From a virus (lineage: Duplodnaviria; Heunggongvirae; Uroviricota; Caudoviricetes): a stretch of 64,000 nucleotides of DNA. Under the pieces are notes generated by a model. The model was given only the letters and a program-made list of their open reading frames with translations. It made no database searches and was not told where the DNA came from. Of the stretch, positions 15,120 to 60,004 are shown in pieces. The DNA lies in IMG/VR virus record IMGVR_UViG_3300036766_001364, positions 1 to 64,000 of that record; one strand, written 5' to 3'. Positions within the stretch are counted from its first letter, which is position 1. Each line of letters starts with the position of its first letter. A program made the position numbers and the translations under genes.

Positions 15120-15290
15120 GACTCTCTCGTTTGGACGCGTTCATCTTGGCGTCTCGACCCAGCTCATGCTCGGCGTGGCTTGGTTCGACTCCTCGCTCGA
15201 GCTGAGCGTTGGCCCGTTCTTCGTGCTCGTGCTCTTCTGGAAAATAAAGAGCGACGGCGCCCACGGCGCTGTCGAGACAGCGGGCCCCAG

Positions 15291-16532
15291 ATGATTGATG
15301 TCTTCAAGACCGAGAACGCGTTCGGGACCGGGGAAGTCCGCTCGTGGGCGTCTCTGCTCGACGAGAACTGCCGCCGGCAAGCCGAGGCGATCAGTCGCGT
15401 GCCGATCCTGGACGGCTACCTCGCGCTCATGCCCGACGCCCACTTCGGCTACGGGCCGCCTGTCGGCTCGGCGTTAATCACGACCGACGCGATCATGCCC
15501 TACGCGGTCGGGAGTGACATCGGCTGCGGGATGATCGCCATCAAGACAACCATAGAACGGGGCCGATTCGGCGAAACCGAACTGCACCGGCTGGCGGGGA
15601 ACGTCCGCACCCTGATCCCTTCGGGGCCAGCAGCACACGAGACGCCCTCGGAACTCAGCGATGAGTTCTTCGCGGGCTATGGCGATGCGCCGGGCCTCAC
15701 TCTGTTTGGGCAACGGGCGGAACACATGGCCTCAACCGCTCGGCGACAATTCGGTACTCTCGGCGCGGGCAATCATTTTGTGGAAGCGTGCGTCGGATTC
15801 GATTCGCCCGAAGCGCCCGTTTGGCTTGTGCTTCACAGCGGATCACGCGGCATCGGGAAGATGCTCTGCGACGTTCATGTAGCGGCTGCCAAGGCGGTCT
15901 GCATGAGAGACGTGGAGCGGCTGGAGTCCCCCGACTTCGCCTTCGTGCGGCGGGGCGATCCCGCGTATGGGGCATACATCGCGGACATGGTGTGGGCGCA
16001 GAATTTCGCTCACCACCAGCGCGAGGCAATGATGGAGGCGTTCATCGACGCCGTCAAGACTTCGCTCGGTATCACACACGACTCGCTCGACTACGAGACC
16101 GTGGCGAACTGCCACCACAACTACGCCGAGGAGATCGCCCCGAGTCGGTGGCTGACCCGCAAGGGCGCGATCGACGCTTCGCTCGGCGCCGTGGGCGTCA
16201 TCCCCGGCTCGATGGGCGCCGCGACATACATCGTCCGCGGCCTCGGCAACGAAGAAGCGTACTGCACGTCTCCGCACGGGGCGGGTCGACTGCTCGGACG
16301 CGGCGTCGCTCGGCGCACCCTGAGCCTCGACGACTTCAGGGCGCAGATGGGCGGCCGGACGTGGCAGGACCGAGACGCCGACGAGCTGCTCGACGAAGCG
16401 CCGGGGGCGTACAAGCCGATAGAGACCGTGATCGCAGACAGCGCGTCGCTGGTCGAGACGACCGCCGTGTTGAGTCAGTTCTTCAACTACAAGGGGGTCG
16501 GCTCGGGCCACGGGAAAGGCGTGAAGCGATGA
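15291..16532 (+). CDS. rtcB: RNA-splicing ligase RtcB (3'-phosphate/5'-hydroxyl RNA ligase)
   Basis: LMPDAHFGYGPPVGS, GSDIGCGMIA, NCHHNYAEE, SPHGAGR. ATG at 15291 is the likely start; the upstream part of track ORF 15180 is not RtcB-like. Confidence 0.9.
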   Translation: MIDVFKTENAFGTGEVRSWASLLDENCRRQAEAISRVPILDGYLALMPDAHFGYGPPVGSALITTDAIMPYAVGSDIGCGMIAIKTTIERGRFGETELHRLAGNVRTLIPSGPAAHETPSELSDEFFAGYGDAPGLTLFGQRAEHMASTARRQFGTLGAGNHFVEACVGFDSPEAPVWLVLHSGSRGIGKMLCDVHVAAAKAVCMRDVERLESPDFAFVRRGDPAYGAYIADMVWAQNFAHHQREAMMEAFIDAVKTSLGITHDSLDYETVANCHHNYAEEIAPSRWLTRKGAIDASLGAVGVIPGSMGAATYIVRGLGNEEAYCTSPHGAGRLLGRGVARRTLSLDDFRAQMGGRTWQDRDADELLDEAPGAYKPIETVIADSASLVETTAVLSQFFNYKGVGSGHGKGVKR

Positions 16533-40894: not shown

Positions 40895-41202
40895 TCTTCC
40901 TTACGCGTGTACGCGCGCAAGAGACCTGCGGTCTCTGGGCTGGAGGGCTCTGCTGATCCCGGTCTCTGGCTCTCTTGTCCTTCAGGAAACAGGAGCGCTA
41001 GGCCTCTCGGTCCAGAAATCCAGAGTTCCCGAGGGACGCGTCCTTCGAGGGGTCCAGTGCGCGGTCGGACGCCCCTGCGGGCGCCGCGGCGAACAGATGT
41101 TACCCGTGCTGGATCGGTCTCCGTCTCAACCGCGGGTGGGTACCATCGGTGCATGCTACAGGACGCTTCTGAGTGACGCGACAGACGAGCCTCGTCCCGC
41201 CG

Positions 41203-42369
41203 ATGAGATCGGGTGAGCTGGACCCGGCGAATGCGCAGAGCGTGAGCCTCGCCGACAGCTATCGAGACTCGAAGTGCACGCGGTGCTCGCTGTCAGAGTA
41301 CGCGCAAAACGTGTGCCTCCCCGGCGAGGGACCGGTGCCAGCGCGCGGGATGATCGTCGCCGACGCCCCCGGCATCCCAGACGACGAGAACGGGAGGCCG
41401 CTCCACCAATCGACCGAGGCGGCGGCCTATTTCGACGCCGTGATCAGGGACGCCGACCTCGATCGCGCCGACCTGTACGTCACGTATGCGGTCAAGTGCC
41501 GACCGCCGTACGGAGACCGGCGCGCCGACCTCATCAAGGTCGCCCAGAAGGAGTGCGCGGTCTATCTCGACAGCGAGATCGCGGCCGTGAAGCCGCGGGC
41601 GGTGCTGTCGATGGGGGCGCCGGGTTACTACTACTTCACGCACGCGCAGGGCATCATGAAGCACCGCGGACAGGCGGTCTACGACGCCGCGCGCGGGCTG
41701 TGGGTCGTCCCCACGGTGTCTCCGATCGCCGTCCTCACGAACCCCGCGCTCGAGGAGGATTTCACCGCCGACGTGAAGAAGTTCAGGAGGCTGATGCTCG
41801 GGATCGACGACGCGCCGAGGGTCAACGTCATCGAGGTCCGCACGATCGAGGACCTGCGCGCGATGGTCTCCGACCTGGATTCGCAGGCGCCCGCCGTGCT
41901 CACGTTCGACCTCGAGACGCGCGGGTTCAACGACGTCAGGGTCGACGGGACGAGCTTCGTCTGGACCGTGGCGCTGACGCGCGGGCACCGGACGCGGGGC
42001 CTGATCGACTCCTACGTCGTGCCGTTGGAGCACCCCGAGTCTCCGTTCCTGGACGACGTCGGACAGCTCAGGGAGGCGGTGGGCTCGGTCGTCGGGCTCG
42101 TGCAGGGGTCTCGGTGCAGCGGGCACAACGTCAAGTTCGACTATCGCTGGCTCGAAATGCTGCGGCTCCGCTACGCCGAGTGCGGCGACGAGGCGCTCAG
42201 AGACGCAGCGCGACGGCTGAAGGAGCGCGAGTACTGGCCCGTGGTCGCTCCAAAGCGCCGCGGCAAGAAGGCGATCCTCGCAGAGCAGCCAGAGCTCCCC
42301 ATGGGATCGGGAGCGATCGATCGCTCCAGCGACGACGATCCGCGCTCCACGCTCTCCGATGAGTTATAG
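41203..42369 (+). CDS. Fusion of a family-4-like uracil-DNA glycosylase to a 3'-5' exonuclease (Exo I and Exo II motifs of a family-A polymerase proofreading domain)
   Basis: CTRCSLSEY...CLPGEGPVPARGMIVADAPG (UDG-4 Fe-S Cys plus GEAPG-like motif); VLTFDLETRGF (Exo I DxE); HNVKFDYRWLE (Exo II); low-complexity C-terminal tail. Confidence 0.8.
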   Translation: MRSGELDPANAQSVSLADSYRDSKCTRCSLSEYAQNVCLPGEGPVPARGMIVADAPGIPDDENGRPLHQSTEAAAYFDAVIRDADLDRADLYVTYAVKCRPPYGDRRADLIKVAQKECAVYLDSEIAAVKPRAVLSMGAPGYYYFTHAQGIMKHRGQAVYDAARGLWVVPTVSPIAVLTNPALEEDFTADVKKFRRLMLGIDDAPRVNVIEVRTIEDLRAMVSDLDSQAPAVLTFDLETRGFNDVRVDGTSFVWTVALTRGHRTRGLIDSYVVPLEHPESPFLDDVGQLREAVGSVVGLVQGSRCSGHNVKFDYRWLEMLRLRYAECGDEALRDAARRLKEREYWPVVAPKRRGKKAILAEQPELPMGSGAIDRSSDDDPRSTLSDEL

Positions 42370-42377
42370 TTGACTGG

Positions 42378-42905
42378 ATGACCGAGCAACTCGTGCACTT
42401 CTTGTTCCCCACTCCAAAGGCCGAACGCGACCTGTTGGCGAAGCTGGCGTCGAGCGACGGCCAGGAGGCCGTCGTGATCACGTCGGGAGAACGCGAGGTC
42501 GCCCTCGCCGCGATGCAGCGGGCGCACCGCGGAGACCGCCTCGCCGAGAGCGTCGCCGCCACGCGACACGTCCTCTTCGCGGTCGACGCGCACTCGTGCG
42601 CCACCGTCGAACAGTGTCGGGACGACTTCGAGAACGATCGCCTCGCTCCCGGAGACATGTGTCCCTGGCAGGCGTCTCAGATCATGGGCTACTACGCCGA
42701 TGACGATTCCCCCAAGGTCAGCGGCGTCAACGGTGAGCTCCTCGCGGCGCTGGTCGCGTACACGCTGTGGCCCGCGTGGGCGGTCGCGATGGGTTCGATC
42801 AAGCTCTATCGCAAGCGGTTCAGAAGCAGACCGGGCGGAGACCCGTTTGCATACGATGATATCGAGAACGTAGATCGATCAGGACGCATGCGCTCGGCTT
42901 CGTAG
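42378..42905 (+). CDS. Hypothetical protein (175 aa) interposed between the exonuclease and polymerase parts of the PolA-like gene
   Basis: ORF in a third frame; no polymerase or nuclease motif recognised. Confidence 0.45.
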   Translation: MTEQLVHFLFPTPKAERDLLAKLASSDGQEAVVITSGEREVALAAMQRAHRGDRLAESVAATRHVLFAVDAHSCATVEQCRDDFENDRLAPGDMCPWQASQIMGYYADDDSPKVSGVNGELLAALVAYTLWPAWAVAMGSIKLYRKRFRSRPGGDPFAYDDIENVDRSGRMRSAS

Positions 42906-43129
42906 GGACGCGGCCCTGACGCACGAGGCGCTGTGGCGCCTGCAGAGGCGCGTCGAACCGCTGCTGGACCTCATGAGAGCGGCGAGAGAGGCAGACAGGC
43001 TCGCGTCCCTTGGAGACCACCCCGACGCCCGCGCGGCGCTCTTCCTGAGGGCAGCGATAGAGAAGTTTGAGGCGGACATCAGGCCGATCGGTTGAGCCGC
43101 CCGCCGGGACCGTCAGGTACCATCTCCGT

Positions 43130-44743
43130 ATGTCCATCTTCTACGACACGATGCTGGCCGCGCACTGCCTCGGAGAGGAGCGCGGCCTCTCGCTGCTGAA
43201 CCAAGCGAGCACCGAGCTTGGCGTCGACGACTGGGGCAAGGGCACCCACTCGTTCGGCGATGCGAAGACGCCTCCCGACCCGCTCTGGGGACCAGACGGA
43301 CTTGCGTACTACAACGCCCGCGACGCCGGGTACACCCACCTCCTCTACGAGGCGCAGCGCGATCAGCTCGTGGCGCACCAGGACCAGGCGAGGCTGATGA
43401 AGCTGCTCGCTTTCCCCGGGATGAACGCTGTGTGTCAGATGGAGCTCAACGGCATCTGGGTCGACCTCGACCGCCTTGAAAAGAGGCGCGAAGAGCTCCT
43501 CGCCAGGCGCGAGGCGGCCAGGATCGAGATGCTGCAGTACGTGTCTGATGATTTTCGAGAGAGCGCAGATTTCGCCAACGAACACTTCCTGCGCAGATGG
43601 ATCTTCGGCCAGCTCCCCGACGGGCTCGGTCTCGAGCCCGTCTCGTTCACCGAGAAGACGCAGAAACCGCAGGTCGACGAGGCGGCGCTCACGGCGCTCT
43701 CGGCGAAGCATCCCGCGATGGAGGTGCTCATGCGATTCCGTCGCGCGACGAAGCACGTGCAGTTCCTCGATGGGTGGAAGACGTTCATGGATCGCGGGCA
43801 CCGACTGCACCCGAGGTTCAACATGACGGGGACGGTCACTGGGCGGAGGTCGTGTTCCGATCCGAACCTCCAGCAGGTCCCGCGCGACAAGTACATCAGG
43901 TCGATCATCGGTGCGCCGCCAGGATGGCGGCTGCTCGAGATCGACTATTCACAGATTGAGGTGCGCCTGTCTGCGTGGTTCGCTGAGGAAGACACGATGC
44001 TCGCCCTCTACGCCGACGACAAGGACGTCTACATCCACATCGCGTCGCTCATCTACGAGAAACCAGAGTCCGAAGTCACGAGGTCCGAGCGGCAGGGAGC
44101 GAAGGCCGTCGTGCTCGGGTTCCTGTACGGCATGGGTCCGCGCAGTTTCGTCATCTACGCCAAGGAAACATTCGACGTCGACTTCACGCTCGACCAGGGG
44201 CGCGCGTTCCGAGAGACGTTCTTCAGCGCGTACCCGCGCCTGCTGCCGTGGCACGATCGCCAGCGCAAGCTCGTCAGGCAGCACCTCCAGGTCTCGTCGC
44301 CGATCGGCAGGGTGCGCCACCTCAAGAGGGTGCTCAGCCTGGACGAATTCACGCGGGCGAAGGCCGAGCGCCAGGCGATCAACAGCCCCGTGCAGGGGTT
44401 CGGCGGGGACCTGACGCTCGCCACCAACCTGAGCCTCATGCCCGAGCTCGACCCCGAAGAGTGTCTCGTCGTGGGCGACATCCACGACGCGCTGCTCTTT
44501 CAGGTGCGCGACGACGTGTGGGAGAAGTGGGCCCATCGGATACTCACCGTCATGCAGGACCCGCCAGCGCTGAGCCCGTTCAACGCCAACGCGCCCGTCA
44601 GGTTCCTCGCCGAGGGCAAGATCGGCCAGCACTGGGGGCAGGGGCTCGAGTTCCTGCTGAAGGACTTCGGTCCAGACGGGACGCTCCCCGTCCAGTGGCA
44701 CGAAGAGTGGGAGAAGCTCTTGGCCGGATACGCGGTGGCGTGA
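43130..44743 (+). CDS. Family-A DNA polymerase, polymerase domain, beginning with the Exo III motif
   Basis: YYNARDAGY (Exo III YxxxD); motif A DYSQIEVRL; RRSCSDPNLQQVPRD; motif B RQGAKAVVLGFLYGMG; motif C VGDIHDALLF. The start may be further upstream (43067). Confidence 0.85.
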   Translation: MSIFYDTMLAAHCLGEERGLSLLNQASTELGVDDWGKGTHSFGDAKTPPDPLWGPDGLAYYNARDAGYTHLLYEAQRDQLVAHQDQARLMKLLAFPGMNAVCQMELNGIWVDLDRLEKRREELLARREAARIEMLQYVSDDFRESADFANEHFLRRWIFGQLPDGLGLEPVSFTEKTQKPQVDEAALTALSAKHPAMEVLMRFRRATKHVQFLDGWKTFMDRGHRLHPRFNMTGTVTGRRSCSDPNLQQVPRDKYIRSIIGAPPGWRLLEIDYSQIEVRLSAWFAEEDTMLALYADDKDVYIHIASLIYEKPESEVTRSERQGAKAVVLGFLYGMGPRSFVIYAKETFDVDFTLDQGRAFRETFFSAYPRLLPWHDRQRKLVRQHLQVSSPIGRVRHLKRVLSLDEFTRAKAERQAINSPVQGFGGDLTLATNLSLMPELDPEECLVVGDIHDALLFQVRDDVWEKWAHRILTVMQDPPALSPFNANAPVRFLAEGKIGQHWGQGLEFLLKDFGPDGTLPVQWHEEWEKLLAGYAVA

Positions 44744-51050: not shown

Positions 51051-51425
51051 ATGCCGCAGTGGGATCGACCGGTCGAAGACACGACGGGGACGCGCGGTCA
51101 CCGCGCGCTCCACGACGCTATCGTGGCGGTGGGGTTCGACGTCGAGGACGAGCACGCCGTGGGCCGATATTCGATCGATTGTTACGTGCGCGAAGCGCAC
51201 CTCGGCTTTGAGTTTGACGGCCCCAAGCACGGCTGGAGGAGCGCCAAGAAGCGCGATTCAGAACGCGACCTGTGGATCCGTGAGAACGGCGGGATACCGA
51301 TCATGCGCGTGACCGATAGAGACGTCTCACGGCGGAGCGAGCTGGCCGGTAGGATCCGACAGTTCATCATCGACAATGAGCACGACATCGCCGACAGGAG
51401 GGCCCAAGGATGGGCGCTGGTATAG
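51051..51425 (+). CDS. DUF559 / Vsr-like (PD-(D/E)xK) endonuclease-domain protein
   Basis: YSIDCYVREAHLGFEFDGPKHGW...RDLWIRENGGIPIMRV. Confidence 0.55.
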   Translation: MPQWDRPVEDTTGTRGHRALHDAIVAVGFDVEDEHAVGRYSIDCYVREAHLGFEFDGPKHGWRSAKKRDSERDLWIRENGGIPIMRVTDRDVSRRSELAGRIRQFIIDNEHDIADRRAQGWALV

Positions 51426-51793
51426 CGGACAACCTCCAGCAGATCATGGACGCGCAGGGACGCCTCCAGGAGCGCATGCTCCCGAAGTGGGTCGCGATGG
51501 GCGAAGCGCTCGGCCTGGACTACATGTCGCTCTACCTCAAGGAGAACTGCGTCATGCTGGTTGACGAAGCGCTCGAGGCGATGCACGAGACGCCGTGGAA
51601 GTTCCACAAGAATGACTTCGGACGAGCGATGCTTGACGGCGAGCGCGACCGCTATCTCCATGAGACGATCGACTGCCTCCATTTCGTGGTGAACATGCTC
51701 ATCTTCGCGGGCGTCACGTCTGCCGACGAGGTCTTGGCGCTCTATATGGAAAAGAACGAAATCAATCACGATCGCCAGGATCGGGGGTACTGA
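51410..51793 (+). CDS. MazG-like / dimeric-dUTPase-like all-alpha NTP pyrophosphohydrolase (candidate dCTPase/dUTPase, like T4 gp56)
   Basis: Alpha-helical protein with VDEALEAMHETPWKFHK...LHETIDCLHF acidic motifs; assignment from memory. Confidence 0.45.
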   Translation: MGAGIADNLQQIMDAQGRLQERMLPKWVAMGEALGLDYMSLYLKENCVMLVDEALEAMHETPWKFHKNDFGRAMLDGERDRYLHETIDCLHFVVNMLIFAGVTSADEVLALYMEKNEINHDRQDRGY

Positions 51794-51833
51794 GACGCCA
51801 CAGCTCCAGCCGAGGCAGACCCATAGCGCGATC

Positions 51834-52241
51834 GTGTGGATGCTCTCGGGCATGAGCGGGGTGTCGCGCGAGACGGTGCACGAGAAGTTCCAGGCGTTTC
51901 TGCAAGAGATATATGACAACCCAGACTTCAGGAAGAAGAAGGACGGATCGAAGATCAATTTCACGACGTTCAGGGGGAACGTCCACGACGCGTTCAGGAT
52001 GATCGAGACGGTGATCTACGAGCTGGACACGGCGAACGGCGCCGTCCTGAAGGCCATGCACGAGGGATACTTCGGCGGCGGGAATCTGAAGTCGATCAGG
52101 GAGAAGGTCGTGAGACTGGTCCGCGAACGGAAGCGCATCCCGATGCGAGCGAAGCGCGAGGGGATCAGAGTCGACCAGAAGCACAGGGGCGCGATCATCA
52201 CCGATCCCGCCGCAGCCGAAGCTCGACCGAGAGCAAGCTGA
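51834..52241 (+). CDS. Hypothetical protein (135 aa)
   Basis: ORF in track. Confidence 0.4.
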   Translation: MWMLSGMSGVSRETVHEKFQAFLQEIYDNPDFRKKKDGSKINFTTFRGNVHDAFRMIETVIYELDTANGAVLKAMHEGYFGGGNLKSIREKVVRLVRERKRIPMRAKREGIRVDQKHRGAIITDPAAAEARPRAS

Positions 52242-52699
52242 TGGCGGCAGATGACATCAATCGGTTCGAGGGAGAGTTCGAGTTCCTGTCGAACTTTTCG
52301 ACGTGTCGGATCGAATTCCGTGGACGGACGTTTCCGACCGTGGAGCACGCGTACCAGTCGGCTAAGACCGACGAACACCACTGGATCGACGCGATCCGGC
52401 AGGCGCCGACGCCGGCCGAGGCCAAGAAGCTCGGGCGGAAATCTCCCGTCCGGTCCGACTGGGAAGAAGTGAAGGAGGGCGCGATGATCGGTCTCCTCCG
52501 CGAGAAGTTCACGAACGAAATGCTGAGGTCGCTCCTCGTCGCTACCGGAGATCGGAAGCTCATCGAGGGAAACTGGTGGGGCGACCGATACTGGGGAGTC
52601 CATCGCGGCGAGGGCCTGAACCGGCTCGGCGAACTGCTGATGCAGGTCAGGAAAGAGATCGCGTCCGTGTATCCTCAGCCTGAGGAGTTTGTGTACTAG
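52241..52699 (+). CDS. NADAR (YbiA-like, DUF1768) domain protein
   Basis: FEGEFEFLSNFS...FPTVEHAYQSAKT...KKLGRK...REKF...LLVATGDRKLIEGNWWGDRYWG. Confidence 0.8.
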   Translation: MAADDINRFEGEFEFLSNFSTCRIEFRGRTFPTVEHAYQSAKTDEHHWIDAIRQAPTPAEAKKLGRKSPVRSDWEEVKEGAMIGLLREKFTNEMLRSLLVATGDRKLIEGNWWGDRYWGVHRGEGLNRLGELLMQVRKEIASVYPQPEEFVY

Positions 52700-53815
52700 A
52701 TGAACATCGCGCTCTTCAGGATCATGAAAAGCTTCAACTCTGGCCGCCAGGCCCTCGGAATGGGCGGGGGCGAGGAGTTCTCGACGATCGCGCGCGAGAT
52801 GGCGCGACGCGGACACCGCGTGACGGTCTACTGTGAGGTAGCGCGCACGTCCCGCGACGACCTCCTCGAGTGGGGCCTCAGGCTGAAGCCCGACGCCGCG
52901 CGCCTCGACGACGACGAGAACTGCCTGATCGTGGACAACGGGGCCGGGATCAATCTCCTGTGGGCGCCGAACCAGCTCGTCTTACCGCGGAGACTCGCTC
53001 GGTTCTACCAGCTCGTGTCGACGTGCGACGTACCGATCTTCTACTCGCAGAGCGACCCGGCGGTCAGCATGGCGATCGTCACCGAGATCGACGACTGGCT
53101 CAAGCTCCCGTCGAAGGTGGGCGTGCTCGAGTATATCACCGTACCAGAACGGGCGCTCGACGGCAAGCAGGTCATCGTGATGTTCACGCAGCATTGGCCA
53201 GACGAGTTCGCCACCAAGATCAAGTCGCGCTACGTGCAGATGGCGAAACACGGCATGAAGTACGAGCACCTCGACCTCTCGCCGACGGCGCTCATCGGCC
53301 GCGAGCGCCAGAACCCAAAGCAAGACCCCGAATACGACATCGTCTACGTGGGGAATTCACGCCGCCGAAAACGGCTGATCCCATACGTCAATCGTCCCGA
53401 CGCGCATGTGTGGGGCCAGTGGTCAGACCGCGTCCGCGCAGATCAGGTGCCGCTCGCCACGATGCACGGGAAGGTCGGCGTGCACCTGGTCCCCGGTGTG
53501 TACCACGACGGGCGCATGACGTTCGTCGTGCGCGACGACCACGAGCTCGGGTTCAACGCGCGGCCGACGCGCATATTCGAGTCAGTGCAGGCGGGATGCC
53601 CGACGTGGGTCGACGCGAAGACGTTCCGGGAGGGGTCTGAGCCGTATTGGCCGTGGCTGATCGAGCACGCCGACATCGATGCGCGGCTCGACGAGATGCG
53701 CGATCCGAATCGGCGTCGGAGCCTGGTCGGCCTGCAGCAGGACTTGGTCTCGTCTGTCGACCCGTTGCAGCCGATCGACGATCTTGAGGCCATCCTCGAG
53801 AAGCACCTGCGGTGA
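52700..53815 (+). CDS. GT-B fold glycosyltransferase (GT4-like); candidate DNA (hydroxymethylcytosine) glycosyltransferase
   Basis: N-terminal MNIALFRIMKSF..GGGEEFSTIAREMARRGHRVTVYC; C-terminal RIFESVQAGCPTWV (E...G.P motif). Confidence 0.6.
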   Translation: MNIALFRIMKSFNSGRQALGMGGGEEFSTIAREMARRGHRVTVYCEVARTSRDDLLEWGLRLKPDAARLDDDENCLIVDNGAGINLLWAPNQLVLPRRLARFYQLVSTCDVPIFYSQSDPAVSMAIVTEIDDWLKLPSKVGVLEYITVPERALDGKQVIVMFTQHWPDEFATKIKSRYVQMAKHGMKYEHLDLSPTALIGRERQNPKQDPEYDIVYVGNSRRRKRLIPYVNRPDAHVWGQWSDRVRADQVPLATMHGKVGVHLVPGVYHDGRMTFVVRDDHELGFNARPTRIFESVQAGCPTWVDAKTFREGSEPYWPWLIEHADIDARLDEMRDPNRRRSLVGLQQDLVSSVDPLQPIDDLEAILEKHLR

Positions 53816-54243
53816 GGCCGCCGCGAAAGCAGGCGTATTTCGACACCGCAGCGGTGTGGGCGCAGCAGTCCACCTGCAATCGGAAGCACGTGGGCTGCGT
53901 CCTGGTCAGTCCAGATGGGTTCGTGATCGCGACCGGGTACAACGGGTCTGAGCGCGGCCGACCGCACTGCGTGGATGTCGGGTGCTACGTTGTCGAGGGG
54001 CACTGCGCGCGGACGATCCACGCCGAGAAGAACGCCCTGCTGCAGGCCGCTTTTCGGGGCGAATCGACGCGGGGGGCGGGCTGCTACAGCACCATGAAAC
54101 CGTGCTTCCGATGTCAGATGGAACTGCGCCAAGCCGGGGTCGCCGAGTTCTTCTGGGTCGAAGACTACGACGACTATCCCGACAACCCGGGCGACATGTT
54201 CGACCTCGACGGGACGATTCGCGAGAGCTCAGAAACAGGATAA
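53812..54243 (+). CDS. dCMP deaminase (cytidine/deoxycytidylate deaminase family)
   Basis: HAEKNALLQAA ... PCFRCQMEL zinc-binding motifs; GTG start overlapping the upstream stop. Confidence 0.85.
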   Translation: MRPPRKQAYFDTAAVWAQQSTCNRKHVGCVLVSPDGFVIATGYNGSERGRPHCVDVGCYVVEGHCARTIHAEKNALLQAAFRGESTRGAGCYSTMKPCFRCQMELRQAGVAEFFWVEDYDDYPDNPGDMFDLDGTIRESSETG

Positions 54244-54282: not shown

Positions 54283-55089
54283 ATGACAGCGCGATCGATG
54301 TCGATTGAGACTAGAGAGAAGATCAGCATTGCGACTCGGGGCCGTCCAAAGGGACCGATGCCGGTTGAGACGCGCGCGAAAATTGGTCAATCGCTCATTG
54401 GAAAGCCATGGGACACTGAGCGTAAACAGCGATATACGTCGCCGATGTTCGGTAAAACGCATACTGCCGAGTCGCGCGCCAAGATAAAGGCCGCCCGGGC
54501 ACTGCAGGTTATGACGCCGATGAGCGAAGACACACGAGAAAAATTAAGGGTCGCCAAGATCGGGTGGAATCCATCGGTTGAGACACGTAAAAAGATTGGT
54601 GATGCGCATCGCGGCAAGGCGGCCTGGAACAAGGGAATTGCATGCCCTGATGACGTGAAAGAGAAACTTCGTCAGGCGAATCTCGGCAAGAAGGCGTCTT
54701 TCGAGACTCGTGAAAAGCTCAGTCTGTTCTTCAGGAATGTGCCACGAACGCCAGAGTGGTGTCAGCGCATAGCTGAAGGTAAGCGACGGCACATTGTTGC
54801 TGGGACAGATTGCGCGGGCGCGTGCTGTCGCCCTAAATGGAGCAATACGCTCCTCGAACAGGCCCTCGCTAGATTGCTTGGCGATTTTCCGCACGTCGTT
54901 CAGTGGAAACGTTTTGGACATTTCACGGTCGACGCATATCTGCCTCATCCATATCATTTAGCGTTTGAAGCGGACGGCTGGCATCATCAGTTCAGGATAG
55001 AGCGCGATCTTGAGAGAGATCAATGGTTGCTTAAAAATCATCAGTTGATCGTCATTCGCCTGACCACTGATGATTTGAAAGGAATATAA
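54283..55089 (+). CDS. Free-standing homing-endonuclease-like protein: about 7 N-terminal NUMOD3 repeats plus a C-terminal DUF559/Vsr-like nuclease domain
   Basis: Repeats ETREKIS / ETRAKIG / ESRAKIK / DTREKLR / ETRKKIG / DVKEKLR / ETREKLS; C-terminal FGHFTVDAYLPHPYHLAFEADGWHH...RIERDLERDQWLL. Confidence 0.65.
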   Translation: MTARSMSIETREKISIATRGRPKGPMPVETRAKIGQSLIGKPWDTERKQRYTSPMFGKTHTAESRAKIKAARALQVMTPMSEDTREKLRVAKIGWNPSVETRKKIGDAHRGKAAWNKGIACPDDVKEKLRQANLGKKASFETREKLSLFFRNVPRTPEWCQRIAEGKRRHIVAGTDCAGACCRPKWSNTLLEQALARLLGDFPHVVQWKRFGHFTVDAYLPHPYHLAFEADGWHHQFRIERDLERDQWLLKNHQLIVIRLTTDDLKGI

Positions 55090-57315
55090 GTGAACTCTCA
55101 GCCTACGGCCATTGGGGTTCACATATACTCTGGCGCCTTTGTTTTAGGATTCCGTGAAAAATTCAAGGTGCTTGGAAAGTGGGAGGAGCTCGACGCTGGC
55201 GCTGAGACATTCAGAATAAACTTGGGTCACGAGATCCCACAGATCATTTCACGACAGGGATTAGACGGTTGGCCGATCGATCAGCATCGCGGCCGTGTGA
55301 ACGTCGTGTTCGCGAACCCGCCGTGCTTTTCGGCGGACACTGTCGTTCTGACTGAGAACGGTTGGGAGAAGATCGGCAAGCTCGTGAAATCCAGATCCAC
55401 CGATAGGGTCTGGGCTATCGGCAGCGACGGCGCGATGGGTTTTCATCGCATCGACGGCTGGCACGACAATCCGTATACAGGCGATCTGTACGCCGTGTCG
55501 TTGAAACACGGCAGGGGCGGAAGTTGGGGGAAGCGACCCGCGATCGCGACGTATAACCATCGCTTTTTGACGACGCGCGGGTGGGTTCAGGCCGCGTCGC
55601 TTCAGCAGGATGATCTGGTGGCCACCGGTGAGATCGCTCCCAATGCGCGGCAGCGCGAGCTCATCGACGGCATGATGCTTGGAGACGCCACTATCAAGGC
55701 ACGACAAGCGCAGTTTGGCACGTCACAGACGTGTGAGGAGCTCGTCGCCATGAAACGCGATGCTCTGGGCGATCTCGTGTGTGGCGACGGTGTCGAACCG
55801 CGAGGGATGGGCGGAGACGGATATTTTCGCCGGCCGCTTCATGGCTTTTATTGCAAGACGTTGAACTGGGCGAAGGTCGAACGCGAGCGCTGGTACGGGG
55901 GCGACGGTCGGAAGATCGTGCCTGTCGACGTCCGATTGACCGACCTCGCTCTCGCCGTTTGGTTTATGGACGATGGCCACGGGATAGGTCAGAGATGGTC
56001 ACATCGCCCCGAGTATAAAACTCGGTATCACGGTCCTTGGCTGTCGATGGCTACCTGCAGTTTCGATGCGACGAGCCTTGAGATACTCACGCGCGGTCTG
56101 GAAGCGATCGGCATAACGGCGGTTCAACACCGGCGAAAGAGCGGCTACGTGGATCTCGAGATAAGGGGCGAATCGGCGATCGCGTTCATCGATCGTATCG
56201 GGCGGTTCGTGCCGCCATCGATGCGCTACAAGCTGCCCGACTGGGCTCCGGGGTTTGAACAGGACAACTGGCAGCTTGGCGCGTCGATCACCGGTTGGGA
56301 CAGTCCCGTGGTCGTGAATCGCGGTCCGGCGCCAGACAGTTTTAGAGCGTACTGTCTGGACGTTCCCGAAGCCCAGAATTTCGTGACGCGCGGCGGCGTC
56401 GTCCATAACTGTGCTATCTGGTCGACGATGGGGTCGCGGCTGGGCGAGAACGACCCGCGGATCGTGTTCACCAAGAACTGCGCAGAACTCGCAAAGCGGC
56501 TCGAACCGGATTTCTTCGTCATGGAGTCCGTCTGTAGAGCGTGGAGCCCGACAGGCGGCAGGCCGACCTACACGCGCATGGCGCAGGAATTTGGCGCTCT
56601 CGGGTACGCGACGACTATATTCATGACGAACACCATGCTCCACGGAGCTCCGCAGTCGCGCGAACGCTTTCACTTCATCGCGCATCGATACGCCATAGAC
56701 CTCCACGGGCCAGACATGCGAACGTTCAGGCCGGCGACCGTCAGAGACGCGATCGGAGACCTCGAAGAGAGCGCGGTGTCGACGGTCTCAGGGAGGGATC
56801 CGACGCTCGCGAACCATGTCTATCCCGTGCTCTCTCCGAGCGAGATGAACGTCGTGAAGCGCATGTGCCCGGGCGAGGGCTGGGACGTCGGCATCGGACG
56901 CTGCATCGAGGACGGCGTCCCGTTCCGCAAGTCCAGGTTCCTGGCCGGACGCATGGAATACGATCGGCCGTCGCGCACGATGGTCGACATCTCGTGTGTG
57001 TTCCATCCCGCGCGCGATCGCATCATTACGATGCGCGAGGGGGCGAGGCTCTGCGGGTACCCAGACTGGTTCAGGTTCTCGGACTCTCCGTCGAACCGCA
57101 CGTATGGGGCAGAGCACGTCGAGCTCACCCAGGCGGCCCTGCCGTTCATGGGCAGGTTCCTCGGAGACGAATTCGCGCGCGCCCTAGACAGGGCCGACGG
57201 CGTCCGACCGACGGCGTCCGCAGACGACATCAAGGTGGTGGACCTGAGGCCGCTCACGGCGCGGTTCGGGCCGCGTTCGCTCAGAGAGCTGCAGACCGAC
57301 GACACGGTAGCATGA
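55090..57315 (+). CDS. DNA (cytosine-5)-methyltransferase-like protein interrupted by an intein (extein about 379 aa)
   Basis: Extein motif IV FANPP|C-AIWSTMGSRLGENDPR (compare GPPCQAFSxxGKxKGxxDxR), ESV (ENV-like), HGAPQSRERFHFIA (motif VIII QxRxR); N-terminal IYSGAFVLGF is a degenerate motif I. Confidence 0.75.
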   Translation: MNSQPTAIGVHIYSGAFVLGFREKFKVLGKWEELDAGAETFRINLGHEIPQIISRQGLDGWPIDQHRGRVNVVFANPPCFSADTVVLTENGWEKIGKLVKSRSTDRVWAIGSDGAMGFHRIDGWHDNPYTGDLYAVSLKHGRGGSWGKRPAIATYNHRFLTTRGWVQAASLQQDDLVATGEIAPNARQRELIDGMMLGDATIKARQAQFGTSQTCEELVAMKRDALGDLVCGDGVEPRGMGGDGYFRRPLHGFYCKTLNWAKVERERWYGGDGRKIVPVDVRLTDLALAVWFMDDGHGIGQRWSHRPEYKTRYHGPWLSMATCSFDATSLEILTRGLEAIGITAVQHRRKSGYVDLEIRGESAIAFIDRIGRFVPPSMRYKLPDWAPGFEQDNWQLGASITGWDSPVVVNRGPAPDSFRAYCLDVPEAQNFVTRGGVVHNCAIWSTMGSRLGENDPRIVFTKNCAELAKRLEPDFFVMESVCRAWSPTGGRPTYTRMAQEFGALGYATTIFMTNTMLHGAPQSRERFHFIAHRYAIDLHGPDMRTFRPATVRDAIGDLEESAVSTVSGRDPTLANHVYPVLSPSEMNVVKRMCPGEGWDVGIGRCIEDGVPFRKSRFLAGRMEYDRPSRTMVDISCVFHPARDRIITMREGARLCGYPDWFRFSDSPSNRTYGAEHVELTQAALPFMGRFLGDEFARALDRADGVRPTASADDIKVVDLRPLTARFGPRSLRELQTDDTVA
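55324..56409 (+). mobile_element. Intein (362 aa) with a LAGLIDADG homing-endonuclease domain, inserted directly before the PC-motif catalytic Cys
   Basis: Block A CFSADTVVLTENG, block B ATYNHRF, two LAGLIDADG blocks LIDGMMLGDATI and AVWFMDDGHGIG, C-terminal VVHN followed by Cys+1. Confidence 0.75.
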
Positions 57316-57319
57316 TCGC

Positions 57320-58267
57320 ATGACAGATCCCTTCGTCGTCATAGAGGGCATAGATGGAGCGGGGAAATCTACGCTCGCCAGGGCTTTCGTCGCTCAAGGG
57401 ATGGCGTACGGACACTTTGGTCCACCCGACAGACCCGCGTACCGATTCTACTCAGAGATCTTTGACCGCCACCCACACCAGGCGACCGTCGTCGATCGGA
57501 TGCACGTCGGGAGCTTCGTGTATGGCACGATCTTTCGCGGGATGGACGAACTGACGCCCTACGAGCACTGGCTCATCGAGGGCCGGCTCATGGGCCGGAA
57601 CAGCGTCATGGTCTACGCGTGTCCCCCGGCGGTCGCCTCGGATCGCGCGCTCGACCGCGGTCCGCGCGACGCCGTTGAGGAGCTCTATGAGGACGCGAGC
57701 CGACGAGACGACGTGCGCCGGCTCTACGAACAGTACATGAGCAGCATGTCTGCATTGCCGATCTTCGCTTACGATTTCACGGCCGCTCCAGACGCGATGC
57801 AGCGCACTGTGTCTGAGGTGATGGCGACGCTCGCGTATTTCTCTGATGCGCCCCGCCCCGTGGCGTCGGCAGACCCATTTGGGAATGCCTATTCTCCACA
57901 GTACTGTCTCGTCGGCGCTGCGCCGAGTCGCTACCTGCACGGGGCGCTCGTCGCCGCTCGAATACGGTTGAATGCCACGTGCATCGTTGGGCGGCTGCCG
58001 GACGATTATGAACCGAGCGAGTTCTGGCTGTCGACAGTCTTCGTCGCGCTTGGCAGGAAGGCGCACGCGCAGCTCGATGAGATGGGAATCAAGCACGTCG
58101 CCGTGCCCCATCCCGGCCTCGTCGAGGCGGCGCATTACGCCGACATCGTCCGCTATGCGAAGGCGATCAGGGGCGATACAGACTTCCCGCTCGATCGCCC
58201 GACGAAGCGCGAAGAGCTCGCAGCGACCGCGTCTAGGCTCAGGAAGATCGGGCTTGTTCTGCCGTGA
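57320..58267 (+). CDS. P-loop deoxynucleoside monophosphate kinase (thymidylate-kinase-like; T4 gp1 analogue) with a C-terminal extension of about 110 aa
   Basis: VVIEGIDGAGKSTLARAF Walker A of the Tmk/dNMP kinase type. Confidence 0.7.
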   Translation: MTDPFVVIEGIDGAGKSTLARAFVAQGMAYGHFGPPDRPAYRFYSEIFDRHPHQATVVDRMHVGSFVYGTIFRGMDELTPYEHWLIEGRLMGRNSVMVYACPPAVASDRALDRGPRDAVEELYEDASRRDDVRRLYEQYMSSMSALPIFAYDFTAAPDAMQRTVSEVMATLAYFSDAPRPVASADPFGNAYSPQYCLVGAAPSRYLHGALVAARIRLNATCIVGRLPDDYEPSEFWLSTVFVALGRKAHAQLDEMGIKHVAVPHPGLVEAAHYADIVRYAKAIRGDTDFPLDRPTKREELAATASRLRKIGLVLP

Positions 58268-59109
58268 AGGTCTACAGGCTCGATGCCCTTGGCACGGGAT
58301 ACGCAGACCTCCTCAGAGACGTCGAGCAGAGCGGCGACATCGTGAGGCCGCGCGGGATGGAGGTCCGCGAGGTCAGGCCGCTCGTGCTCGAGATCTTAGA
58401 TCCGACGCGATCGCTCGTGAAGCGTCCGGGGATCAACCGCGCGCTGATGTGGATGGAGATCGCGCAGCTCATCGCGGGTGAATGGGACGAGGGGCTCATG
58501 CGCGCGATGTCCGCGCAGGCAGCCGTACTCATGTCCGCTCAGGGCGCGTACGGGCCGCGCACGGCGATGCAGCTCGAGCAGGCCGTCCTCGAGCTGGTCC
58601 ACGACGCGGACTCGCGTCGTGCGACTGTGATCGTGGCGCGCGAGAGCGACCTGTTGAAAGCGCGGGCCGGCGCGAATGAACAGCCGTGCACGCTGTCTTG
58701 GCAAGTTTTCGCGAGAGGCGGCAGGCTCGAGATGGTGGTCAGCATGCGCTCGTGGGACCTCGTCTGGGGGCTCGCAAACGACGTGCCGATGTTCACCATG
58801 ATCCAGCGATGTCTCGCGTGGGCGCTCGGCCTCGAAGTCGGGACGTACACCCATGTCGCGGGCAGCGGCCACGTCTATAGCCGCCACTACGGGCTCTGGG
58901 AGCGGGTGTCGCCGACGACCGAGCGGCTCGCGCTCGTGATTCCACGCGATCTGCCAAGCGGCTTCATGGCGCAGGACAGGTGGGTCGGCGTCGTCGCTGG
59001 AGCGATATCGGCTCTCAGGCTCGCGAGGGTCGGTAAGCTTGACGAGCTGCCCGCGCATTGGAGCCACGTCGCTCCCCTCTGGAAGAAGAAGCTGGAGAAT
59101 CATGGCTGA
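58264..59109 (+). CDS. ThyA-fold pyrimidine hydroxymethylase/methylase, predicted deoxycytidylate hydroxymethylase (T4 gp42-like)
   Basis: DSRRATVIVAR; catalytic QPCTLSWQ; MRSWDLVWGLANDVPMF aligns with E. coli [17 protein letters not shown] so that ThyA Asn177 becomes Asp, the cytosine-specificity determinant of gp42; LEVGTYTHVAGSGHVYSRHY. Confidence 0.75.
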   Translation: MKVYRLDALGTGYADLLRDVEQSGDIVRPRGMEVREVRPLVLEILDPTRSLVKRPGINRALMWMEIAQLIAGEWDEGLMRAMSAQAAVLMSAQGAYGPRTAMQLEQAVLELVHDADSRRATVIVARESDLLKARAGANEQPCTLSWQVFARGGRLEMVVSMRSWDLVWGLANDVPMFTMIQRCLAWALGLEVGTYTHVAGSGHVYSRHYGLWERVSPTTERLALVIPRDLPSGFMAQDRWVGVVAGAISALRLARVGKLDELPAHWSHVAPLWKKKLENHG

Positions 59110-60004
59110 CGCCGTGGCCGATCGCCGCATCGGGCTCGACAGGCTCCTCAGGCAGCTGAAGTCCAATGACTGGGTGTCGCGTGCGCTCGACGGGATCGGC
59201 GTCCAGCCGGAAGACGCGTGGGTCCCTCCCAAGCTCGAGATAAACCCGTCGGGGACGGGAGGGCCGTGCGCTCTCGACATCCAGTTCGGCATGCTCGGGC
59301 ACAGGACGCCGATCGCGCCCAAGAATCGACGGCGCATGGACAACGGGACGATGGCCCACCGGAGGTGGTCTGAGTACTTCGAACAGACCAATCTGCTCGT
59401 GGTCGCGTCCAAGAGGCTCAAGCAGGCGGGCGTCTGGAGCGGAGAGATCGATGTCATCGTGAAGAGCCCGGCGACGGGGTCGTTCCATGTCGGCGAGATC
59501 AAGACGACCAACTCGAACAGTTTCGGTCGACTCCCGCGGCAGGTCGCCGACCTCGACGCGATGGCCCTCGCGATGGCGGGGCACAACAAGGCCTACCTCT
59601 TCCAGCTTGCGCAGTACGTCGTCAAGTTCAAGCAGGCGTACTCAGCGCTGTCAGACGAAGCGTTCTTCCTGTTCGAGAACACCGATGACCAGGACTATCG
59701 CGTCCTGTGGCTGCGGATCGGCGCGAACCTCAAGCGCGACGCGTTCCTCAACGGCGAACTCGCGCGACAGGCCACGATCGATGGGCGAGTCATCGAGAGG
59801 CCGTTCGCCAAGGGATCGAGCACGTGCAAGCGTTGCTATCGCAGGAAGGTCTGCGACGACTATCACGCCGGGATCGGGGACGTCGTCCAGCGCGTCGAAG
59901 AAGCGATGTTCAAGGCGGGACAGCTTCCTCCGCCGAGCACGGTATGGACCGAGGGGTTCGACCGCGATCAGTCTGACGAATTCGACGAGGAGATCGCGTG
60001 GTGA
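59101..60004 (+). CDS. PD-(D/E)xK nuclease (RecB/Cas4-like) with a C-terminal Cys cluster
   Basis: IDVIVKSPATGSFHVGEIKTTN (D...E.K); C-terminal CKRCYRRKVCDDYH; ATG at 59101 after GGAG. Confidence 0.55.

Follow-up and report, generated by a model that had tools for sequence, protein, structure and literature searches.

What lies between the two halves of the catalytic Pro-Cys motif in a cytosine methyltransferase-like phage gene, and why does that gene stand beside genes predicted to hydroxymethylate cytosine before it enters DNA? Both questions arise from one locus in the window, by which we mean the whole 64,000-nucleotide stretch of viral DNA that was analysed.

The insert at the catalytic cysteine

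An earlier look at the letters of the window, which we call the sequence-only reading, had proposed a 362-aa intein at 55324–56409, and translation matches these coordinates exactly, to the base. The precursor open reading frame (Table 1) begins with a GTG codon, 8 nt downstream of an AAAGGA Shine-Dalgarno sequence, and the insert (CFSADTVV...GGVVHN) occupies precursor residues 79–440 in frame. An identical 741-aa protein is P0136 on the Logan contig SRR11714510_2722, and the precursor protein is known from one contig in one sample. We interpret the element, with a probability of roughly 0.88, as a class-1 intein carrying a two-motif, I-SceI-like LAGLIDADG homing endonuclease and lying between Pro78 and the catalytic Cys of motif IV (NPP/C, where the slash marks the junction). 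That the +1 nucleophile is also the catalytic Cys of the PC motif, as had been proposed, is borne out by a profile alignment that pairs the +1 Cys with the Cys of the M.HaeIII PPCQ motif.

Table 1. Positions of the split methyltransferase-like gene, the parts of its insert, and neighboring genes in the window.
Feature	Position	Strand	Details
All-alpha dUTPase/dCTPase-like NTP pyrophosphatase	51428..51790	+	PF08761, 51.7 bits vs cut-off 22.9
dCMP deaminase	53812..54243	+	PF00383, 68.5 bits
Free-standing homing-endonuclease-like gene	54283..55089	+	NUMOD3 repeats, DUF559/Vsr-like nuclease; PHROG label homing endonuclease
C5-methyltransferase-like precursor ORF with putative intein inside	55090..57315	+	741 aa, stop codon included
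N-extein	55090..55323	+	aa 1-78; motif I HIYSGAFVLG, motif II WEE, 3' end NPP of motif IV
Class-1 intein (predicted)	55324..56409	+	362 aa, 40.3 kDa; profile, alignment and fold evidence
N-terminal splicing (Hint) region	55324..55653	+	block A = Cys1; TIGR01445 over residues 1-83; fold match
Block B TYNH	55549-55560	+	T76-Y-N-H79, intein numbering
LAGLIDADG_2 (I-SceI-like) homing endonuclease domain	55654..56238	+	PF03161 over insert residues 111-285
LAGLIDADG motif 1 LIDGMMLGDA	55660-55689	+	
LAGLIDADG motif 2 LAVWFMDDGH	55951-55980	+	
Conserved FVPPSMRYKLP	56206-56238	+	
C-terminal splicing region	56350..56409	+	block F YCLDVPEAQNFV; block G GGVVHN; TIGR01443 residues 342-362
C-extein	56410..57315	+	first residue is the +1 Cys, the motif IV catalytic Cys (NPP/CAIWS); later motifs VI (ESV), VIII (QSRER), target-recognition region, IX (RIITMREGARLCGYPDWF), X (TQAALP)
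P-loop dNMP/thymidylate-kinase-like protein	57320..58267	+	PHROG 761, thymidylate kinase, E 2.5e-12
Thymidylate-synthase homologue, predicted dCMP-specific	58264..59109	+	L143E, D169 kept, N177D (ThyA numbering)

The sequence-only reading had named blocks A and B, two LAGLIDADG motifs and a terminal His-Asn, and on each of these profiles, alignment and the predicted fold agree. It had also suggested an intein and HMM search; run on the insert, this placed three models above their cut-offs, namely NCBIfam intein_Nterm (TIGR01445, 25.5 bits vs 24.5), NCBIfam intein_Cterm (TIGR01443, 22.0 bits vs 15.6) and Pfam LAGLIDADG_2 (PF03161, 44.4 bits vs 25), and one below, Pfam Intein_splicing (PF14890, 29.1 bits against a gathering cut-off of 35.8). 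The endonuclease insertion divides the PF14890 model in two; both NCBIfam end models pass. All residues required for splicing are kept: Cys1, the TxxH of block B, and a C-terminus in which a penultimate His and a terminal Asn are followed by the +1 Cys (GGVVHN/C). The AlphaFold2 model of the insert (pLDDT 85, pTM 0.83) matches PI-SceI in a fold search (E 4e-12). The splicing domain of the Mtu RecA intein superposes on it with an rmsd of 1.7–1.9 Å, and those of Mtu RecA, Ssp DnaB and Npu DnaE taken together with 1.7–2.5 Å over ∼103 columns. A search of the window with crude Hint HMMs built for the analysis gave no further intein.

The endonuclease domain is similarly well preserved. The acidic residues of both motifs (D121 and D216/D217) are invariant across 15 aligned sequences, and G116, L119, G120, D121 and A211–G218 are invariant in an alignment with free-standing 207-aa LAGLIDADG genes. 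Foldseek pairs the domain with I-SceI and I-WcaI at target TM scores of 0.64–0.68 (0.66 for I-SceI), and the model of the insert contains the characteristic alpha-beta-beta-alpha-beta-beta-alpha double fold. The agreement of profile, fold and comparative evidence for an intein is far beyond chance.

The closest relatives of the element are the inteins of P0121–P0124 and P0126, which align over the full length at 31–37% identity; the C-terminal blocks of the insert line up with those of P0121–P0124. They share the LAGLIDADG_2 endonuclease, the FVPPSMRYKLP motif and the GGVVHN/C end, but interrupt other host proteins (a Cas4-like nuclease, family-4 UDG-like proteins and a helicase) at other insertion sites, suggesting that this intein lineage has moved between unrelated DNA-metabolism genes. 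Neither the phage collection nor a set of 5.8 billion proteins yielded a copy of the 362-aa intein in any methyltransferase, or any relative above 37% identity. As this nearest relative resides in a different host protein, the searches give no direct sign that the intein homed recently into the methyltransferase family. The insert is likewise absent from 77 of 77 aligned homologues and from 77 IMG/VR loci, that is, from ∼150 intein-less homologues.

Base composition divides the locus. The intein (GC3 0.68–0.73), the N-extein (0.60) and the adjacent free-standing homing-endonuclease gene (0.55) are compositionally foreign to a genome with a median GC3 of 0.80; the C-extein, at 0.82, is typical of it. 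The free-standing gene scores 62.3 bits for NUMOD3 and 17.2 bits, under the cut-off, for DUF559 (Pfam), and its TAA stop codon directly abuts the GTG of the methyltransferase gene.

The host protein and its predicted cytosine-modification neighborhood

With the intein removed, the exteins join into a 379-aa, 42.5-kDa protein, a predicted C5-cytosine DNA methyltransferase-like protein. It scores 84.7 bits against PF00145 (cut-off 22) and 69.9 against the NCBIfam 'dcm' model TIGR00675, below the cut-off of 100.65. Its AlphaFold2 model (pLDDT 94.7) has M.HaeIII, M.HhaI and DNMT1 as top fold matches, M.HaeIII being the best, and shows a two-domain fold with a target-recognition domain (target TM 0.75 to M.HaeIII and 0.71 to M.HhaI). 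Motifs IV, VI and VIII, of which the sequence-only reading had recognized the PC, ENV-like and QxRxR signatures, are found in the alignment as NPPC, ESV and QSRER; their residues C79, E117, V119, R162 and R164 (spliced numbering) are invariant in the clade, as are N76, P77, P78 and C79 around the insertion site. The +3 residue after the junction is Ile, where the family has Pro. All 13 invariant columns of a 78-sequence family alignment are intact in the spliced extein, which indicates that selection acts on the host gene and that its product needs splicing in order to function.

The gene belongs to a large, apparently virus-only clade of C5-methyltransferase-like proteins with a shortened motif I. 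The degenerate IYSGAF that had been singled out in this gene is real, and it is common to the whole clade, whose consensus (H/N)I(Y/F)(S/G/A)G(G/A)F(T/S)LG is two residues shorter than the canonical FxGxGG. Compared with M.HaeIII and M.HhaI, clade members thus share the fold, the catalytic Cys, the motif VI Glu, the motif VIII Arg-x-Arg and motifs IX and X in unchanged order, but differ in this shorter glycine loop (Y/F-S/G/A-G-G/A-F-T), in motif IV (NPPCAPWS, canonically GPPCQxFS) and in motif X (TQAV, canonically GNAV), so that neither the FxGxGG of motif I nor the GN of motif X is found. A conserved Asp at the motif III position was not found in the clade. Clade members retain the Cys/Glu/Arg apparatus of C6 attack, despite the short AdoMet loop and the Gln of motif X. 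In some of them a DNA polymerase A, a UDG-like domain or a MazG-like pyrophosphatase forms part of the same protein. Among 50,697 phage records, the whole gene had no megablast match; tblastn of the extein returned generic C5 methylases only, at 23–28% identity, and no cultured relative. In a scan of 185,579 species genomes a single true family member turned up; it lies on a 216-kb contig from a Dehalococcoidia MAG and offers no useful hint of a host.

The genes around the methyltransferase point to cytosine modification at the nucleotide level. The best solved relative of the thymidylate-synthase homologue is the CMP 5-hydroxymethylase MilA (E 9e-16), and the residues of the homologue at the positions diagnostic for dCMP specificity (PMC13326640, PMC8670742) predict 5-hydroxymethyl-dC in the DNA. 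Together with the kinase-like, dCTPase-like and dCMP deaminase genes, it completes a T4-type pre-replicative 5hm-dC gene set. The dUTPase/dCTPase-like protein is 40% identical to the equivalent gene of a related locus (L003), and homologues of the kinase-like gene occupy the same place, between methyltransferase and thymidylate-synthase homologue, in 14 loci of closer relatives. A gene of the methyltransferase clade followed by the thymidylate-synthase homologue recurs in 53 of 54 related loci.

The sequence-only reading had found a C5 methyltransferase puzzling in a genome that appears to hydroxymethylate or glycosylate cytosine. The puzzle is real, and it concerns the whole clade and not this genome alone (the adjacent thymidylate-synthase homologue has the dCMP-specific Asp at ThyA position 177); the glycosylation part is weak, since Pfam gave only sub-threshold GT4 matches, the GT-like gene being at 52700–53815, and no solved relative was found by sequence. 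In the literature, nucleotide-level modification of cytosine through thymidylate-synthase homologues and DNA-level modification by a C5 methyltransferase plus TET are treated as alternative routes. We rejected the latter, post-replicative C5-MT/5mYOX (TET) pathway to 5hmC, as no TET/JBP gene adjoins the methyltransferase; no TET/JBP or 2OG-Fe(II) dioxygenase came up when ∼80 ORFs of the window were scanned, nor do the gene tables for the related loci L001–L004 list one. The window also holds no homologues of the HMUDK, ADDT and DSP-phosphatase genes that lie beside the homologues in L001 and L003. We found no published explanation for the pairing of a C5-methyltransferase-like gene with a dCMP-specific thymidylate-synthase homologue.

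A precedent for altered chemistry in this fold is CmoX, the cytosine C5-carboxymethyltransferase of Synechococcus phage S-B43 (PDB 8yf3), which is a relative of the extein in sequence and fold. CmoX, a phage homologue of C5 methyltransferases, has a changed cofactor pocket and attaches a handle on which hypermodification can build; it is recognized by an SPPC motif, a conserved carboxylate-binding Arg (R350) and a link to CmoA (PMC12783734). The present clade differs in having NPPC and a Gln at the Asn position of motif X, no counterpart of the R350 position was located, and no CmoA neighbors the gene (Pfam scans of ∼80 window ORFs contained no CmoA-like or class-I methyltransferase domain); a Cx-SAM carboxymethyltransferase of the CmoX type is thus not supported.

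The most likely reaction of the host enzyme would be to attach a one-carbon (or related) group at the C5 position of cytosines in phage DNA, with its Cys attacking C6, and it would act within a module that also makes 5-hydroxymethyl-dCMP. We tentatively raise the less probable idea that the clade is an integral partner of thymidylate-synthase-type, pre-replicative cytosine modification and either transfers a group other than methyl or acts on 5-hydroxymethylcytosine itself; covalent activation at C6 could then serve to exchange or extend the 5-substituent of 5-hydroxymethylcytosine in DNA. If true, this would be a DNA-modification step so far undescribed, which the intein would make dependent on splicing in the present phage. 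For the biology of phage DNA modification the host gene matters more than its intein: the two gene types are paired systematically, without TET, in hundreds of uncultured phages, and the role of the enzyme on DNA predicted to hold 5-hydroxymethylcytosine could reveal a new modification step.

Proposed splicing and homing, and the alternatives

The 83-kDa precursor would be catalytically dead because the intein splits its catalytic loop. Splicing would begin with an N-S acyl shift by Cys79, whose thioester would be handed to Cys441 (the +1 residue); Asn440 would then cyclize, and an S-N shift would re-form the Pro-Cys bond. The products would be the free 40.3-kDa intein and a 42.5-kDa enzyme whose NPPC loop is whole again. 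Once released, the intein may in turn cut intein-less alleles near AACCCGCCG/TGYGC in co-infecting relatives, and the cut allele would gain the intein through recombinational repair, that is, by homing. The reconstructed intein-less junction reads AACGTCGTGTTCGCGAACCCGCCG/TGTGCTATCTGGTCGACGATGGGG, and a candidate homing target bearing it is AACGTCGTGTTCGCGAACCCGCCGTGTGCTATCTGGTCGACGATGGGG. The NPP/C site is presumably favored because conservation in the gene is highest there and because it provides an obligatory Cys. The 362-aa intein, whose I-SceI-like nuclease seems intact and for which a 48-bp candidate target is defined, could serve as a tool.

Whether the endonuclease half of this cycle still turns is the point on which another reading deserves most thought. 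The intein may splice normally while its endonuclease is inactive or without a target, so that the element would be a fixed passenger late in its homing cycle and no longer mobile. Its single known occurrence would fit such a history, with nearest relatives of 31–37% identity in other host proteins, as would its GC3, which lies between that of the clearly foreign homing-endonuclease gene and that of the genome and suggests some residence time, maybe that of an old, partly ameliorated element; the AlphaFold2 model also has three low-confidence loops in or near the endonuclease domain. We nevertheless regard this as unlikely, since the acidic residues of both LAGLIDADG motifs are kept together with K144, K197, P200 and MRYKL, which are invariant in the free-standing relatives, and the domain is of full length and models well against I-SceI. 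A defect in splicing itself, which would leave the methyltransferase gene an effective pseudogene or a mere carrier of the endonuclease, might be read from the sub-threshold Intein_splicing score, but is made very improbable by the presence of Cys1, TxxH, His-Asn and the +1 Cys in an intact 741-codon reading frame; conserved family-invariant residues and genome-like codon usage in the C-extein would also be unexpected for a dead gene.

Conditional protein splicing exists as a phenomenon, and splicing could here act as a switch, a Cys1/Cys+1 disulfide keeping the precursor inactive until conditions become reducing and so confining the DNA-modifying activity to a particular stage or redox state. 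The junction geometry of Cys1 and Cys+1 is suitable, and structural neighbors of the model include a redox-trapped precursor (3nzm, a DnaE intein in a redox trap). Yet Cys1/Cys+1 is the commonest arrangement among inteins, and because nearly all relatives of the host protein have no intein, control through splicing cannot be something that the family generally requires; we consider a switch improbable. Hardly credible, finally, is a non-splicing endonuclease domain fused into the methylase with no intein involved. LAGLIDADG insertions that are not inteins are known in some actinophage N6/N4 methylases (PMC9957025), but here complete N- and C-terminal Hint regions flank the endonuclease, and the catalytic Pro-Cys dipeptide is split, which would be intolerable for a permanent insert. 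Our preferred reading therefore remains a class-1 intein that splices and carries an I-SceI-like homing endonuclease.

Inteins at the Pro-Cys junction and related systems

In architecture, a Hint splicing domain combined with a LAGLIDADG endonuclease, the element resembles PI-SceI (the VMA1 intein) and, in its nuclease, I-SceI, on which the endonuclease core superposes at 4.1–4.7 Å with 20–24% identity. It differs from PI-SceI in that no extra DNA-recognition region of the PI-SceI type is detectable and in that host protein and target site are unrelated.

Closer parallels come from inteins at the same position. Within the clade, a 653-aa relative (P0028, 44% identity, on a 95.8-kb contig of GCA_040961615.1) has an intein at the same NPP/C and shares the neighborhood of a kinase-like gene, a thymidylate-synthase homologue and PolA. 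The P0028 intein, however, is 288 aa long, has no recognizable LAGLIDADG domain, is related to inteins of head-morphogenesis proteins in Salmonella and Escherichia phages and resembles the 362-aa intein around block B only, which points to an independent invasion of the NPP/C site. Outside the clade, gp50 of Propionibacterium phage B22 (KX620750) carries an intein at the identical P/C site (GGSP/C...VVHN/CQ), listed as a C-5 methylase intein in bioRxiv 10.1101/2025.01.02.630785, whose supplement gives its endonuclease as LAGLIDADG. It too is of class 1, with Cys1, His-Asn, Cys+1 and a homing-endonuclease domain inside, but the two inteins have no sequence relation beyond block A, and the host methylase in B22 has the canonical FxGxGG and PCQ, as against the NPPC(A)PWS and short motif I of the present host. 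Relatives of the B22 intein occur in ∼16 metagenomic PF00145 proteins, in six of which the P/C start was read directly; the identical P/C site is thus probably occupied in ∼16 metagenomic C5 methyltransferases, at least six. As significant similarity does not extend beyond blocks A and B, we rejected the possibility that the present element is the same as the P0028 or the B22 intein.

The sequence-only reading had called inteins rare in reports on DNA methyltransferases. This holds for the written literature on C5 enzymes but not for N6/N4 methylases, in which phage inteins are well documented (PMC5050341, PMC9957025). The P/C insertion site itself is already known, and the present element, though clean, is an ordinary example, since further C5 methyltransferases of phages have unrelated inteins in exactly this place. 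It is, on this comparison, a third independent intein lineage at the Pro-Cys junction of C5-cytosine methyltransferases. With three such lineages the junction looks like a recurrent insertion hot-spot, at which one and the same residue is needed by the intein for splicing and by the host enzyme for catalysis.

Anatomy and fold of the insert

The window lies on a metagenomic phage contig of 89 kb (Logan SRR11714510_2722), has a G+C content of ~63% and carries almost all of its genes on the + strand. The boundaries proposed for the insert in the sequence-only reading coincide exactly with the residues and nucleotides listed in the table, and deletion of the insert leaves a spliced protein of 379 aa (42.5 kDa). 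The insert scored above the cut-offs of LAGLIDADG_2 (Pfam; 44.4 bits, cut-off 25), intein_Nterm (NCBIfam; 25.5, cut-off 24.5), and intein_Cterm (NCBIfam; 22.0, cut-off 15.6), and under that of Intein_splicing (Pfam; 29.1, cut-off 35.8). Cys1, block B (T76-Y-N-H79), block F (YCLDVPEAQNFV), block G (GGVVHN), and the +1 Cys can all be read from the sequence. The central part of the insert can be aligned with free-standing LAGLIDADG genes of 207 aa, and in this alignment the two dodecapeptide motifs (LIDGMMLGD121 and AVWFMDD216/217G) are invariant together with their acidic residues. An AlphaFold2 model of the insert (pLDDT 85, pTM 0.83) matched PI-SceI (E = 4e-12), I-SceI (TM 0.66, 24% identity), and the splicing domains of Mtu RecA, Ssp DnaB, and Npu DnaE (1.7–2.5 Å). 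Together, the scores, blocks, alignment, and predicted fold identify the insert as a standard two-part class-1 intein; the LAGLIDADG intein originally proposed is thus borne out by the profile searches and by the model's match to Hint-type splicing domains and I-SceI. The intein is real, complete, and probably active, a good textbook-type case that holds no surprise. No second intein was detected in the window.

Coordinates of the precursor, its intein, and other window features
Feature	Position	Strand	Remarks
Precursor ORF, 741 aa	55090-57315	+	GTG start, AAAGGA upstream
Intein insert, 362 aa	55324-56409	+	residues 79-440 of precursor
NUMOD3/DUF559 homing-endonuclease-like gene (HEG)	54283-55089	+	NUMOD3 repeats and DUF559/Vsr-like nuclease
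398-aa protein, UDG-superfamily domain	41173-42369	+	DNA-polymerase PHROG match
Unannotated ORF, 175 aa	42378-42905	+	
Polymerase domain	43067-44743	+	
dUTPase/dCTPase-like pyrophosphatase	51428-51790	+	PF08761, 51.7 bits; dimeric type
RtcB RNA ligase	15180-16532		ORF assignment provisional; Pfam E 6e-87
NADAR domain protein	52241-52699		
Cas4-like exonuclease	59039-60004		

The DNA polymerase A of the window is apparently split (41173–44743, + strand). As annotated, the Cas4-like ORF begins ~70 nt before the thymidylate-synthase homologue ends.

The interrupted methyltransferase and its clade

The spliced extein scored 84.7 bits on PF00145, and its model (pLDDT 94.7) has M.HaeIII (TM 0.75), M.HhaI, and DNMT1 as top structural matches, in keeping with the C5-methyltransferase-like assignment made at the outset. 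The family profile alignment places vyaNPPCApWS opposite IIGGPPCQSWS of M.HaeIII; the +1 Cys is therefore homologous to the catalytic nucleophile, the PC-motif Cys with which it had been equated. In the unspliced precursor the catalytic loop is interrupted between Pro and Cys, and would be rebuilt by splicing alone. All 13 invariant alignment columns are preserved in the extein, which speaks for a functional, and hence spliced, gene. The residue two after the catalytic Cys is Ile in the window protein (Cys-Ala-Ile-Trp-Ser, 56410–56424), Cys in P0028 (the other intein-bearing clade member), and Pro in 58 of 78 family members; Pro near the splice junction may be disfavoured.

The clade shares motif I (H/N)I(Y/F)(S/G/A)G(G/A)F(T/S)LG, motif II QWEE, motif IV (Y/F)ANPPCAPWS, motif VI ESV, motif VIII QxRERFH, and motif X TQAV in place of the usual GNAV. 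Motif I is two residues shorter than FxGxGG throughout the clade alignment, so that the degeneracy noted in the window protein is real and a trait of the whole family. An exhaustive profile search of the clade returned 828 clusters (50% identity) at E <= 1e-30. In 50,697 phage records there was no member, and in 185,579 species genomes one true match; the clade is virus-only in practice. Some members retrieved by the profile search (P0165, P0255, P0168, P0212) are fusion proteins, joined to DNA polymerase A together with its 3'-5' exonuclease, to a MazG/PRA-PH-like pyrophosphatase, to a domain of the UDG superfamily, or to a further class-I methyltransferase domain, hinting at a replication-coupled or nucleotide-pool-coupled role.

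Nearly all of the ~80 relatives of the spliced sequence (30–55% identity) are 345–405 aa long and lack the insert; the few longer ones have terminal extensions and no insertion at the NPP/C site (the slash marking the junction), and 77 additional IMG/VR loci also lack it. Third-position G+C rises from the HEG (0.55) through the N-extein (0.60) and intein (0.68–0.73) to the C-extein (0.82; genome median 0.80), a gradient consistent with imported selfish DNA. The HEG, a second selfish element adjoining the intein-bearing gene, lies between the dCMP deaminase and methyltransferase genes, in frame with the latter, and only its TAA stop, which abuts the methyltransferase start, intervenes. The similar values of N-extein and HEG suggest possible co-conversion of the N-extein with either the HEG or the intein.

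Pairing with predicted cytosine-modification genes

Methyltransferase gene and thymidylate-synthase homologue together span 55090–59109 in the window. Among the related viral loci (L002–L078), such a homologue lies downstream of the clade gene in 53 of the 54 that extend 5 kb or more beyond it, and most of these also have dCMP deaminase and DNA polymerase A downstream; the 14 closest loci have a dNMP-kinase-like gene between methyltransferase and homologue. Of the 56 homologues read over the full set of loci, 55 have Asp at the equivalent of E. coli ThyA Asn177, and at position 143 most residues are polar. Such residues mark dCMP-specific, non-methylating enzymes (PMC13326640, PMC8670742). The window homologue has L143E, D169, and N177D, and MilA, a CMP hydroxymethylase, is its closest relative of solved structure; a 5-hydroxy-dCMP synthase is less likely, since D169 is kept. 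Other genes of the window code for a dCMP deaminase, a weak GT4-like protein, and the dUTPase/dCTPase-like pyrophosphatase, which shares 40% identity with its positional counterpart in the related viral locus L003 (a longer antisense ORF over it, 51182–51964, is probably spurious). This T4-like gene set predicts 5-hydroxymethyl-dC DNA.

A C5 methyltransferase had seemed puzzling in a genome thought to hydroxymethylate or glycosylate cytosine. The pairing itself recurs in the 53 loci; glycosylation finds weak support, in the GT4-like protein. Neither TET/JBP nor CmoA was found in Pfam scans of the window ORFs or in the gene tables of the related loci L001–L004. The literature consulted presents the thymidylate-synthase and C5-MT/TET routes as alternatives, and we found no description there of this clade paired with a dCMP-specific thymidylate-synthase homologue. 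By default, the clade enzyme would be a sequence-specific methylase that targets residual or early unmodified cytosines; the less likely and more interesting reading is that it uses another chemistry, in which the donor differs as in CmoX, or acts on 5hmC. What the host clade does is the question worth following.

Comparison with known inteins

The closest relatives of the window intein (31–37% identity) reside in a Cas4-like nuclease, family-4 UDG-like proteins (at KC/RPP), and a helicase, and all share FVPPSMRYKLP and GGVVHN/C. The lineage has evidently moved between genes of DNA metabolism. Among 5.8 billion proteins there is no copy above 37% identity, and recent homing is therefore not demonstrable.

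The Pro/Cys insertion site is already known. P0028 (653 aa) carries an intein at the same NPP/C junction; this 288-aa element, similar to inteins of Salmonella and Escherichia phage head proteins, has no recognisable LAGLIDADG domain and is unrelated to the window intein except in block B. On the same contig, a DNA polymerase A gene (L001:14035-17133, 1032 aa) with a faint LAGLIDADG_3 match may carry another intein. Inteins had been called rarely reported in DNA methyltransferases; this fails for phage N6/N4 methylases, whose inteins are well documented (PMC5050341, PMC9957025), and holds only for the published record on C-5 methylases, the sole such host among 784 surveyed actinophage inteins being Propionibacterium phage B22 gene 50 (2025 preprint, bioRxiv 10.1101/2025.01.02.630785). 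GenBank labels its product only "DNA methylase". Translation of that gene (L094:8941-11040) places an intein at the identical position (GGSP/CFVAGT...IVVHN/CQDLS), unrelated to that of the window. Relatives of the B22 intein occur in ~16 metagenomic proteins with PF00145; the intein starts at P/C in all 6 sequences read and ends at HN/C in the 5 complete ones. The B22 protein and P0276–P0292 carry one family of related inteins at this junction, in canonical C5 methyltransferases. With the window, P0028, and B22-type inteins, at least three unrelated lineages therefore occupy the Pro/Cys junction of C5 methyltransferases. Thus, what is new in the window is the host clade of a Pro/Cys intein, not the site itself.
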